Origin: Candidatus Methanoperedens sp.
GTDB taxonomy: Archaea; Halobacteriota; Methanosarcinia; Methanosarcinales; Methanoperedenaceae
Length of the DNA stretch: 32,000 nucleotides
Direction: 5' to 3'
Assembly: GCA_027460535.1 (NCBI GenBank)
Contig: JAPZAR010000011.1
Span: 1-32,000, forward strand
Positions 5,068-5,253 of this stretch are shown here, piece by piece. The position numbers and the translations under genes were made by a program. The notes under the pieces were generated by a model. That model did no database searches, was not told the origin of the DNA, and saw only the letters and a list, made by a program, of their open reading frames with translations. Every line of letters begins with the position of its first letter. Positions within the stretch are counted from its first letter, which is position 1.

Positions 5068-5253
5068 TAAATCTGCGTTCATCATGCCGAAACCCTGCGG
5101 GTTCTCGACTCCGCGCCCACGTATGCCTGCGGGCATATCGCGCAGCGATATCCACGTATGGCGGAGCCATACGTGTGTGCGACGTCAAATGGCGCAACGG
5201 TTGACGTGGACACGCCCTCCAGAGGCGTGACTCTGGGCGCTTTCATCTGCGGT
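5068..5253. repeat. Palindrome cluster, copy B
   Basis: Starts with aaatctgcgttcatc. It then contains aaccc-tgc-gggtt, tatgcc-tgcg-ggcata, atatcgc-gca-gcgatat (5135-5151), cacgtatggc-gga-gccatacgtg (5153-5175), acgtcaa-N12-ttgacgt (5182-5207) and cacgcc-ctccaga-ggcgtg (5211-5229). It ends in TTTTTTATTTT (5243-5253). Confidence 0.8.

Follow-up and report, generated by a model that had tools for sequence, protein, structure and literature searches.

The 32-kb stretch of Candidatus Methanoperedens DNA analyzed here (the window) contains a toxin-antitoxin/defense island, and clusters of perfect hairpins sit between the island cassettes. In a second locus, L021, elements likewise lie between island cassettes, and cassettes shared with the window are arranged differently there. 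The fourth cluster of the window lies exactly at the junction of the island and the chromosome, where it meets a hydantoinase-like gene (8322-9287, minus strand). The surroundings of the window copies contained no transposase or integrase nearby, except for one IS110, and an exact look-up of a 225-aa endonuclease-like protein, meant to extend the island leftward, returned no record. The features are as follows; the modules (frame, M1, H1, H2) are described below.

4941-4975, plus strand: promoter-like box P1 (GGCGCCGG + TTTTAATATTT), with further copies at 1005-1040 and 6672-6706
1424-1460, 2374-2410, 7209-7245 and 7981-8005: related P2 boxes
1123-1222, plus strand: short degenerate copy of the repeat, with a decayed left frame atctgggtttgtc, H1 at 1154-1176 and the H2 variant tgcgcc-ctccaga-ggcgtg at 1180-1198
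1213-1222, plus strand: right frame of the short copy, then TTTTTTATTTT
2146-2175, plus strand: fifth copy, frame-only, without a hairpin core (atctgcgtttattcgctttcatctgcggtt; ATCTGCGTTTATtCGCTTTCATCTGCGGTT)
5015-5070, plus strand: leader with CACGGAT/ATCCGTG motifs, also at 8100-8150 and 6760-6800
5071-5254, plus strand: composite copy of 184 nt, one copy of the repeat and the feature studied here
5071-5083, plus strand: left frame ATCTGCGTTCATC of the 184-nt copy
5087-5107, plus strand: bulged hairpin M1 with GACTC junction, 184-nt copy
5118-5137, plus strand: truncated H1a, 184-nt copy
5135-5151, plus strand: palindrome atatcgc-gca-gcgatat, 184-nt copy
5153-5175, plus strand: H1b, 184-nt copy
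5182-5207, plus strand: acgtcaa-N12-ttgacgt, 184-nt copy
5211-5229, plus strand: H2, then junction ACTCTGGGCGC, 184-nt copy
5245-5254, plus strand: right frame ATCTGCGGTT of the 184-nt copy
5253-5266, plus strand: T-rich tract TTTTTTATTTTC 3' of the right frame
6801-7007, plus strand: composite copy of 207 nt with two H1s and caaggg and tcgactg hairpins, in the order frame, M1, H1 (acgtatgcc-tgcg-ggcatacgt), caaggg hairpin, 12-bp H1 (6901-6928), tcgactg hairpin, H2 (6964-6982), frame
8158-8334, plus strand: copy at the junction of island and core chromosome, with a different left module (ggcgtcatgcccgctgcaatgcatag) followed by caaggg hairpin, H1 (8233-8255), tcgactg hairpin, H2 (8291-8309) and a degenerate right frame atctgaggtt

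We found that the hairpin clusters are real. There were 1, 3, 4 and 3 perfect hairpins (stem of at least 7, loop of 3-12) in 1154-1231, 5068-5253, 6798-7016 and 8156-8330, compared to means of 0.01-0.15 such inverted repeats, and a maximum of 2, in dinucleotide shuffles (300 per cluster). The whole window has seven perfect hairpins with stems of 9 or more, and five of them are CACGTAT-type units inside the clusters. The CACGTAT units named in the preliminary description were found (cacgtatggc-gaa/gga-gccatacgtg, cacgtattgc-gaa-gcaatacgtg, cacgtatgccag-tgcg-ctggcatacgtg and acgtatgcc-tgcg-ggcatacgt), as were the other units, (t)caaggg-ttgcgc-cccttg(a), tcgactg-(g/a)cgtga-cagtcga, acgtcaa-N12-ttgacgt and cacgcc-ctccaga-ggcgtg. 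The last of these had been called invariant; it is present, but cluster 1 has the variant tGCGCC-ctccaga-GGCGTg. The clusters had been said to end at ctgcggTTTTTTATTTT, which holds for clusters 1 and 2 only; cluster 3 has ctgcggtttgtaattttc and cluster 4 has ctgaggtttccttttcc. A P1 box 90-130 nt upstream had been claimed for every cluster, but cluster 4 lies ~150-170 nt from a promoter-like box of a second type (ttaagagtgataa). The boundaries also had to be amended: the element starts at the frame ATCTGCGTTCATC (5071, 6801 and 8158) and ends at ATCTGCGGTT (5254, 7007 and ~8334). A coding role for the 170-nt conserved spacer after each cluster was excluded by 1-nt indels.

The basic unit is 114-120 nt long and consists of a ATCTGCGTTYATC frame, the bulged hairpin M1, a GACTC junction, the variable perfect palindrome H1, the hairpin H2, a ATCTGCGGTT frame and a T-rich flank. 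The frames are 10-bp direct repeats (ATCTGCGTTY ... ATCTGCGGTT) that can be tandem and can stand without the core; the frame-only state was also found in L021 (atctgcgtttatctgcgttcatctgcggtt) and within the phosphoglucomutase gene of L167. The core comprises the conserved bulged M1, GACTC-containing junctions, at least one variable perfect palindrome (H1 and accessory hairpins) and a near-invariant H2 (CACGCC-CTCCAGA-GGCGTG), whose loop is also able to pair with a downstream TCTGG. The invariance of H2 is partly an artefact because H2 was itself the search query, and secondary copies in the same loci have the variants TGCGCC/GGCGCA and TACGCC/GGCGTA and a CGAAAGA loop. Copies fall into length classes of 101, 114-120, 126-138, 184-186, 207-210 and 267 nt. 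Frame, M1 and H2 are common to all classes, and the internal hairpins differ. Module order and orientation were fixed in 44 of 44 full copies; only the H1 palindrome flips.

What had been described as variable hairpin content resolves into fixed subfamilies, each kept across species, with discrete lengths of 114-120, 184-186, 207-210 and 267 nt. The 184-nt and 207-nt composites of the window are two such subfamilies, 93-97% identical in other species. The whole 184-nt unit recurred in L065 (94% over 184 nt), L054 (7264-7062; 93% over 203 nt) and L045 (91%), and the 207-nt copy recurred in other Methanoperedens species at 97% (L026), 95% (L007 and L070) and 93% (L015) identity. The short degenerate copy at 1123-1222 matched positions 48-118 of the nhmmer profile (E=1.7e-17).

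The right flank of the element is T-rich, with 52-82% T at positions 3-10 after GCGG in 44 copies; this tract either belongs to the element or reflects a preference for such targets. The left flank is conserved and reads TTRTTG on the other strand. The CACGGAT/ATCCGTG motifs form a second, optional palindromic module upstream of some copies: in 11 of 53 elements the preceding 300 nt contained at least three of these motifs, and the background frequency was 0.34 per 300 nt.

The repeat is dispersed in Methanoperedens. The invariant H2, scanned as a 21-mer, matched 79 stretches, nearly all from Methanoperedens and representing about 30 MAGs; many of the matches were at contig ends. The number of exact H2 cores per MAG ranged from 1 to at least 12. 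The same 21-mer had no match in IMG/VR. The nhmmer profile had 112 matches in 562 kb of H2-bearing loci and a single, partial match in 372 kb of control loci, itself in a Methanoperedens locus. In the searchable literature we found no prior account of such a repeat family in Methanoperedens.

Copies of the element adjoin unrelated housekeeping genes, and their placement is oriented. In 15 of 44 copies, no more than 90 nt separated the right end from the stop codon of a gene on the opposite strand; in 3 of 44, the left end was equally close to the stop codon of a gene in the same orientation (15 vs 3; binomial p about 0.008). For these counts the elements were masked at their exact boundaries, which removes spurious ORFs that cross the element. 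Copies that follow a gene sit 0-90 nt past its stop codon, and the sense strand of that gene is usually the reverse complement of the strand read in the preliminary description. Other copies are intragenic or lie between divergent genes. Clustering of the ORFs within ~4 kb of 80 copies produced recurrent "families" that were only translations of the element itself, with no linked transposase. The element also supplies stop codons and changes the 3' ends of genes. In the window, the right frame of the junction copy encodes the final four codons (E-T-S-D) of the gene at 8322-9287, and the TAA stop (8322-8324) is just inside the frame, in the junction of the element. Orthologues of this gene in other Methanoperedens (L086, L088 and L093) end differently, and both the element and the island are missing downstream of them.

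Close relatives differ in the presence of the element. At one phosphoglucomutase codon the site is empty, frame-only or full: most orthologues are 465-468 aa long and have no insert, two have a 33-nt frame-only insert, and two have the full element of 117-120 nt. Compared with solved homologues and with the 466-aa orthologues, the L055 protein is longer by 39 residues. In addition, a U32 peptidase gene has in-frame copies of 120 nt and 267 nt in two species (L027 and L042). These are the only two independent intragenic sites seen; the element adds about 40-90 residues to housekeeping enzymes. Alignment of the empty, frame-only and full phosphoglucomutase alleles placed the target in an A-rich tract, and divergence at the junction obscured any target-site duplication. 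At the copies examined we saw no transposase, no terminal inverted repeats and no target-site duplication that could be resolved, so we infer mobility from the distribution of the element and from presence/absence differences, and not from mechanism.

The complementary stem changes noted in the preliminary description persisted in further copies. In a set of 30 canonical copies, drawn from 18 species-level MAGs, 99.3% of H1 stem positions were paired, and both partners had changed in 4 of the 10 pairs. However, five alleles also had H1 loops in either orientation (for example, 5 copies vs 4, and 4 vs 3), and the unpaired bases flanking H1 switch jointly between C...T and A...G. G.U and A.C mismatches (about 4 vs 2) were too few to assign an RNA strand, and no strand bias was seen among them. 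The inverted loops and flanks point to a palindrome-templated change in DNA and do not require selection on RNA. The seemingly compensatory changes may have come from palindrome-templated repair together with DNA inversion.

The rest of the element is highly conserved. Outside H1, columns were 94.7% identical between MAGs and 95.7% identical within a MAG. At orthologous loci, the flanks were 75-93% identical compared to 87-99% for the elements. The element is nearly unchanged over at least 18 species, and this constancy hints at a sequence-specific partner. Purely selfish repeats are not usually as similar between species as within one, nor retained at orthologous sites, and the element could be mainly a host-functional sequence.

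We think it likely that the clusters belong to an interspersed repeat family that is non-autonomous, modular and rich in palindromes, is specific to the Methanoperedenaceae and resembles REP/BIME, BOX and RPE. The BIME/REP-like reading offered in the preliminary description fits the genus-wide dispersal, the modular palindromic structure and the location of copies beside unrelated genes and inside genes. The best reading is that the family is previously undescribed and is an archaeal counterpart of the bacterial REP, BOX and RPE repeats, not a locus-specific small-RNA gene. The repeat would spread, or would formerly have spread, into A/T-rich tracts by means of an unlinked trans-acting enzyme, possibly as folded single-stranded DNA. 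Once inserted, it is predicted to be mostly co-transcribed as a 3' UTR. With an A-rich tract on one side and a U-rich tract on the other, it would be a probable transcript-end element, predicted to act as a termination or insulation signal or as a barrier to 3' exonucleases. M1 and H2, the sequence-specific parts, may be retained through binding by a putative factor of the host or of the element.

Small palindromic mosaic repeats such as REP/BIME, BOX and RPE are well studied in bacteria. BOX of Streptococcus pneumoniae has the structure boxA-boxB(n)-boxC, and ERIC/IRU elements carry internal insertions. Like these, the Methanoperedens repeat has conserved terminal modules and a variable number of internal ones, producing discrete lengths; it is structured as a single strand and has no transposase of its own. 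The likeness to BOX, constant end modules around a variable internal set, is architectural only and without sequence homology. Unlike BOX/ERIC, the internal modules are different palindromes, not one repeated boxB, and a hypervariable palindrome flips. Rickettsia palindromic elements (RPE) are ~100-150 nt long and are found both in-frame in protein-coding genes, where the host protein tolerates the extra peptide, and between genes. The Methanoperedens repeat is likewise palindromic and lies both between genes and in-frame within conserved protein-coding genes, but RPE are bacterial and unrelated in sequence, and here two independent intragenic sites were seen.

The repeat also has the properties of MITEs and other small non-autonomous repeats: it is short, non-coding and multi-copy, and is present or absent among related genomes. 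With the archaeal PATEs (derived from IS200/IS605 or IS1341) it shares a rich secondary structure and presumably a non-autonomous nature. Unlike MITEs and PATEs, it ends in direct repeats, its first 30 nt do not match the reverse complement of its last 30 nt, and we saw no parent IS whose ends match. Copies matching a known REP or PATE family would have counted against the preliminary description; taken literally, they do not, since no described family matches.

REP and BIME of Enterobacteria and Pseudomonas are associated with RAYT transposases and include GTAG- and CGTC-tagged REPs (PMC3733652, PMC2817692). A REP is defined as an imperfect palindrome of 20-40 bp with a GTAG (or CGTC) tag at one end (PMC3733652). 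The survey of REPs, which also mentions RPE, lists bacterial phyla only (PMC3733652). Like REP/BIME, the Methanoperedens repeat forms short, GC-rich, multi-copy extragenic palindromes in mosaic clusters, lies mainly downstream of coding regions and sometimes within genes, and varies in copy number among related genomes. REP/BIME are thought to work as RNA hairpins at the 3' ends of mRNAs, and a similar role is proposed here. Unlike REPs, it lacks the GTAG/CGTC tag; the sequence around H1 reads GCGC[A/C]-CACG...CGTG-[G/T]A, and M1 and H2 are also untagged. It is bounded by 10-bp direct repeats, its host is archaeal, and no RAYT was found nearby. Its fixed module order and orientation also differ from REPIN/BIME, since it has no inverted doublets and no head-to-head or tail-to-tail alternation.

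It is possible, though rather doubtful, that the element is a host-domesticated cis-acting RNA signal, that is, a mobile "transcript-end module" with an old functional motif, H2, at its center. In this reading H2, as hairpin or pseudoknot, makes up a conserved leader of tRNA-Gly(CCC) together with a neighboring hairpin in ANME-2d as well as ANME-2a, and the dispersed copies would bring a common RNA-binding or processing factor to mRNA 3' ends. An identical H2 core of 21-29 nt is found upstream of tRNA-Gly(CCC) in L001, L039 and L048 of Methanoperedens and in the ANME-2a loci L011 (two copies) and L052. In these leaders the core has the same sense relative to the tRNA as the 3' UTR copies have to their genes, and the hairpins flanking it covary (A-U to C-G and U.G to C-G). 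The equal similarity between and within species, the conservation of the element above flanking coding DNA at orthologous sites and the placement 0-90 nt past stop codons are also consistent with such a signal. However, the range of copy number among MAGs, the intragenic copies, those between divergent genes and the variants with a replaced H2 loop argue against it. This reading overlaps the one we favor, and the difference is mainly one of emphasis, functional versus selfish. An extended version, which we offer tentatively and consider unlikely, is that the pseudoknot-capable H2 beside a freely varying hairpin was an old functional RNA signal of ANME-2, first in the tRNA-Gly(CCC) leader (ANME-2a and ANME-2d), and later became mobile in Methanoperedens, spreading to dozens of housekeeping genes, at their 3' ends, and into some coding regions. 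Purifying selection would then keep a portable transcript-end or RNA-processing module for a dedicated factor.

The preliminary description had also proposed a structured RNA of 180-320 nt running from P1 to the T-run. In the specific form of this idea, each cluster is an independent small RNA gene that starts ~25 nt past the TATA-like P1 box, is read from the plus strand and terminates at the oligo-T run. The H2 loop is C-rich and contains CCUCC, identical to the anti-Shine-Dalgarno core; it might base-pair with ribosome-binding sites such as those of the neighboring toxin-antitoxin genes. All four window clusters have P1 or P2-like boxes 110-170 nt upstream, the same promoter-leader-frame units are found in L021 and L069, and sequence conservation across species is strong. 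The T-rich stretch after ATCTGCGGTT is a genuine, position-specific feature of the family, with a run of at least four T's in 19 of 44 copies, and it favors the proposal. The plus strand folds better than shuffled sequence (z = -2.6), but so does the minus strand (z = -3.9), and in 28 of 31 canonical copies the minus strand had the higher stability. The promoter-like box (GGCGCCGG/TTAATATTT; repeat families D5, D9 and D10) occurs in island-type loci only (the window, L021, L046, L049 and L069) and is absent from the other 70-odd loci. For most of the 80-odd copies, the sequence upstream is unrelated and lacks a box at any fixed distance. The box, a predicted promoter, thus belongs to the segmental repeat of the island and not to the dispersed element. 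The copies in the window island would be part of a larger segmental repeat of 0.7-0.9 kb that happens to put a promoter-like box upstream. The opposite-strand bias of post-gene copies, the in-frame copies within genes, the fixed subfamilies, the absence of strand bias among the few wobble-compatible mismatches and the flipping of H1 loops also argue against an RNA gene. Rfam 15 covariance models, searched in the window and seven related loci at gathering and E<=5 thresholds, identified tRNAs only. As a general description of the family, the RNA gene is therefore improbable. For copies in islands, transcription from P1 is quite plausible.

Three of the window copies do have a promoter-like box before them and a T-run after them, an observation that runs counter to the explanation we favor.

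Resemblances to known RNAs were also considered. The H2 loop (C-U-CCA-G-A) resembles the anticodon loop of tRNA-Trp, and GGGTTCTCGACTCC resembles a T-arm, but ARAGORN and Rfam found no tRNA and the T-loop consensus is not present. H2 and its flanks as an HDV-like, pistol or twister ribozyme, a K-turn, or a C/D or H/ACA RNA were unsupported by inspection; the ribozyme models are within Rfam.

It is highly improbable that the elements are attC-like recombination sites that assemble the island cassettes: they do lie between shared but rearranged cassettes in the window and L021 and at the exact island-chromosome junction, and they are palindromic and foldable as single strands, but there is no integrase in the window or L080, core sites of the GTTRRRY/RYYYAAC type are absent (the frames read ATCTGCGKTT), the other boundary of the L021 island has no element, and most copies are single, beside or inside housekeeping genes and far from islands.

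The interspersed repeat that we favor has several consequences. It breaks metagenomic assemblies, with many copies at contig ends. For annotation, it accounts for the spurious ORFs over the clusters and marks the junction of the defense island. Signals for termination and 3'-end stability in archaea are poorly defined, and the repeat provides a natural set of transcript-end hairpins that is testable in archaea.

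We found that the four hairpin clusters of the window (1154-1231, 5068-5253, 6798-7016 and 8156-8330; clusters 1 to 4) are copies of one modular palindromic repeat, here called the element. We searched for the 21-mer of its H2 hairpin (CACGCCCTCCAGAGGCGTGAC) in a genome set that has one representative for each prokaryotic species. The 21-mer matched 79 stretches, many of them at contig ends and nearly all from Methanoperedens or Methanoperedenaceae MAGs. Two of the 79 are labelled as bacterial MAGs. These were probably mis-binned: both have flanks similar to Methanoperedens loci, and one is from a study that also produced a Methanoperedens MAG. 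The 21-mer had no match in IMG/VR, and no Rfam family matched the element. A profile of the canonical unit had 112 matches in 562 kb around the 21-mer matches and, in 372 kb of control loci (mostly other methanogens), one partial match, in a Methanoperedens locus. Exact-core copies per MAG ranged from 1 (the M. nitroreducens ANME-2d reference) to at least 12 (GFS_3223).

Alignment of the flanks of copies defined a canonical unit of 114-120 nt, which reads from left to right:

5' end: (CAAYAA)ATCTGCGTTYATC - A(A)TG - CCGAAACCCTGCGGGTTCTCG (M1, a hairpin with one bulged C) - ACTCCGCGC
H1, a variable palindrome: [A/C]CACGTATGCC-loop-GGCATACGTG[G/T], then A
H2 to right end: CACGCC-CTCCAGA-GGCGTG - ACTCTGGGCGC - YTTY - ATCTGCGGTT, then a T-rich stretch

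Longer classes have additional hairpins between M1 and H2, and the number of 10-mers in the direct-repeat frame varies among copies. All of the hairpin units in the preliminary description were found in the window sequence, and the clusters are hairpin-rich, with 1, 3, 4 and 3 perfect hairpins (stem of at least 7) compared to 0.01-0.15 in dinucleotide shuffles. H2, described as invariant, is present but has a variant in cluster 1. Similarly, two clusters end in T6AT4, as proposed, but the other two do not. A fifth copy, at 2146-2175, has the frame and no hairpins. Hairpin content had appeared to vary from cluster to cluster. Instead, it is fixed in subfamilies that are each spread across species, since the 184-nt copy (5071-5254) has relatives in L065, L054 and L045 at 91-94% identity and the 207-nt copy (6801-7007) has relatives in L026, L007, L070 and L015 at 93-97% identity.

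There are also smaller relatives. A minimal 55-nt form, CCAGAGTCACGCCTCTGGAGGGCGTGTCCAGCACTTCGGCTGGACTATTTT, consisting of H2, a short hairpin and AUUUU, is found at L008:60-330 and L044:680-740. It occurs twice in L008, and the second copy has the H2 loop and part of the stem replaced (GAATCTTTCGGG). Locus L037 has two 59-nt mini-copies (1040-1103 and 4494-4560) that are missing M1 and H1, with the frame joined straight to H2 at a GCC microhomology. The two are inverted relative to each other and belong to a larger inverted duplication (at least 300 nt), which also takes in the 3' end of a gene.

The element is highly conserved. Outside H1, copies were 94.7% identical across MAGs and 95.7% identical within a MAG; the search pattern had fixed about one-fifth of these columns. 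At orthologous loci, elements were 87-99% identical compared to 75-93% for the flanks, which are largely coding DNA. Secondary copies, which were not selected for H2, had pairing-preserving H2 variants (TGCGCC/GGCGCA and TACGCC/GGCGTA), recombinant half-variants of H2, and a CGAAAGA loop. This conservation exceeds that expected for decaying selfish DNA, and suggests that M1 and H2 are recognised sequence-specifically or that exchange between copies and species is frequent.

Four kinds of sequence evidence argue that the element has moved: unrelated neighbours, the range in copy number, missing orthologous copies, and in-frame copies in genes. Copies have unrelated housekeeping genes as neighbours, without any protein family that recurs near them. 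Orthologues of the gene at 8322-9287 in other Methanoperedens (70-76% identical in amino-acid sequence) are followed by neither the element nor the island (1-8340). In the window, the last four codons of this gene are within the right frame of the element, and its TAA stop (8322-8324) is in the element's junction. Locus L055 has a 117-nt in-frame copy in a phosphoglucomutase/phosphomannomutase gene, where it separates domains I and II and encodes EPQMKAPRVTPLEGVSTHGYAMRVRGVENPQGFGIDERR, a segment missing from solved homologues. Most orthologues of this enzyme in Methanoperedens lack an insert and are 465-468 aa long. Two (P0003 and P0011) have a 33-nt frame-only insert, GAACCGCAGATGAACGCAGATGAACGCAGATTT, and the same codon is the site of the full element in L055 and P0001. 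Without an insert, the site is an A-rich stretch of lysine codons, and alignment resolved no target duplication there. The frame-only alleles indicate that the frame can exist alone, as do window 2146-2175 and L021. A two-domain U32 peptidase gene has an in-frame copy of 120 nt in one species and of 267 nt at the same place in another. We can only infer the mechanism by which the element spreads.

In some species, a second, unrelated in-frame insert lies near the phosphoglucomutase N-terminus (L055:2554-2589 and the matching site in L167, P0002, P0004 and P0011). Its product is ETPYLNTGT..., and CCCCGTATTTAAATACGGGG is a perfect palindrome in its DNA. Genes of Methanoperedens may commonly have small in-frame inserts that are palindromic.

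The H1 stem was 99.3% paired in 30 canonical copies from 18 MAGs. Four of its 10 pairs were changed on both sides, in 30 cells, a measure greater than in all 500 shuffles and all slid controls. Mismatches were very rare, with no bias between G.U and A.C. Five H1 alleles have the loop in both orientations (for example, CGCA in 5 copies and TGCG in 4), and the unpaired bases beside H1 switch jointly, C...T versus A...G, as inversion of the whole palindrome would give. Together, these three properties argue against RNA selection as the cause. At one orthologous site, 3' of the same gene in three species, there are three different H1 alleles and the rest of the element is unchanged. In quasipalindrome mutagenesis, template switching copies changes from arm to arm and inverts the centre. 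We infer that the perfect, apparently compensated H1 stems come from template switching within palindromes, which is still compatible with a role for the RNA.

The window is archaeal chromosome of a Methanoperedens. The hydantoinase-like protein at 8322-9287 (minus strand) has an identical sequence and the same neighbour genes in GCA_027460495.1. The region from 9.4 to 32 kb contains housekeeping genes, including thermosome, ELP3, NIF3, SecDF, CDP-archaeol synthase and ATP sulfurylase. Genes of toxin-antitoxin and restriction type form an island at 1-8340:

DUF433 with DUF5615/PIN, present twice
HicB/HicA
Retropepsin-like gene
297-974, minus strand, NmeDI_C-type endonuclease, plus two truncated copies
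IS110 transposase, one in the island, ORF 2669-3730

These genes are spaced by repeated intergenic modules of 0.3-0.9 kb, and all four clusters are inside those modules. The truncated endonuclease copies (4656-4922 and 6392-6658) match 721-987, the 5' part (first ~85 codons) of the gene, and belong to the same segmental repeat that bears P1 and the clusters. The IS110-family element (2441-3950) apparently inserted in the repeated leader motif after the promoter-like boxes (...gcgctttataccgtaaag / IS / cagcacgcaaggagcgcaaagc..., compared with window 1045-1086). IS110 elements are known to target repeated sequences, and such an insertion would be consistent with that. A C-rich spacer of ~170 nt (ATTTCGACCCTCCCTCCCTTCCACTATCCCCGACCTTCAC...GCGCAACGGCAGCGCCCCCTTCACAGAA) follows each cluster (1222-1400, 2178-2350, 5254-5415 and 7008-7190). 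It is conserved among the four copies yet has 1-nt indels, indicating that it is non-coding, and a 17-mer from it had no match in the other 79 loci. The whole island is missing 3' of the orthologous hydantoinase-like gene in the Methanoperedens loci L086, L088 and L093, which have an M42 peptidase gene there instead, and L087, L089, L092 and L095, from other relatives, have different content again. Thus, the chromosome varies at this spot.

The preliminary description offered two readings, a small RNA running from promoter to terminator or a BIME/REP-like DNA element. The promoter-like boxes P1 and P2 (GGCGCCGG, TTAATATTT, ~22 nt, then GCGCTTTATACCGCA) are part of the larger segmental repeat of the island. 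A box does precede the clusters, but cluster 4 is behind the second type. The boxes recurred only in similar islands (L021, L046 and L069), and L021 has the same promoter-leader-frame units both with and without the hairpin core. Dispersed copies have no P1/P2-type box, so the small-RNA reading is not supported as a general description. Plus-strand transcription of the island copies from these boxes may well occur. Upstream of about one-fifth of elements, arrays of a 9-10-nt unit, RCGGAT ... ATCCGYG, form long imperfect palindromes (3-9 motifs per 300 nt compared to a background of 0.34; window 5015-5060 and 8100-8150; L014, L018, L049, L056 and L067). Leaders also have separate tandem motifs, CGCAAAG/CTTTGCG (window 1057-1086; L022, L007 and L060).

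The BIME/REP-like reading is supported: the element behaves like REP/BIME, BOX/ERIC and RPE repeats. Unlike REP-RAYT systems, it has no GTAG/CGTC tag and no alternating doublets. It has no terminal inverted repeats, which define MITEs, and does not have the defining features of attC sites. We file it as a new family among small modular palindromic interspersed repeats; the searchable literature yielded no earlier description of such a repeat in Methanoperedens.

Three MAGs of Methanoperedens and two of ANME-2a also have the H2 core immediately 5' of tRNA-Gly(CCC), in the same sense as the tRNA, as part of a conserved ~75-nt element:

L001:3880-4100, L039 and L048, Methanoperedens
L011:6300-6620 (two tandem copies) and L052:7700-7879, ANME-2a

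The three parts of this ~75-nt element are, in order, a hairpin starting with a copy of the first 15 nt of the tRNA, H2, and another hairpin that contains an internal loop. The gap between this element and the tRNA in Methanoperedens is too short to hold a promoter, so the primary transcript of the tRNA probably includes the element. Its hairpins have compensatory differences between ANME-2d and ANME-2a (A-U to C-G and U.G to C-G). The ~75-nt element may be a leader RNA that has gone unrecognised, and H2 may derive from it.

We determined the orientation of 44 copies using exact element boundaries and ORFs of at least 100 aa. The right end (ATCTGCGGTT) was 0-90 nt from the stop codon of an opposite-strand gene in 15 of the 44, compared to 3 of 44 with the left end 0-90 nt from the stop codon of a co-oriented gene (p about 0.008, by our own arithmetic). 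At the closest junctions, the stop codon touches the element or is only a few nucleotides away. Thus, the typical layout is gene, stop codon, 0-90 nt, and then the element as AACCGCAGAT...CGCAGATTT. The strand described initially is the reverse complement of this one, and cluster 4 has this layout. Folding was better than in shuffles for both strands, and more so for the minus strand. Bias at specific positions is also present in the flanks: the plus strand is T-rich after GCGGTT and the minus strand has TTRTTG after CGCAGAT. That is, either strand is A-rich before the hairpins and U-rich after them. Judged from these sequence features, the element would function in the cell as a two-way transcript-end element.
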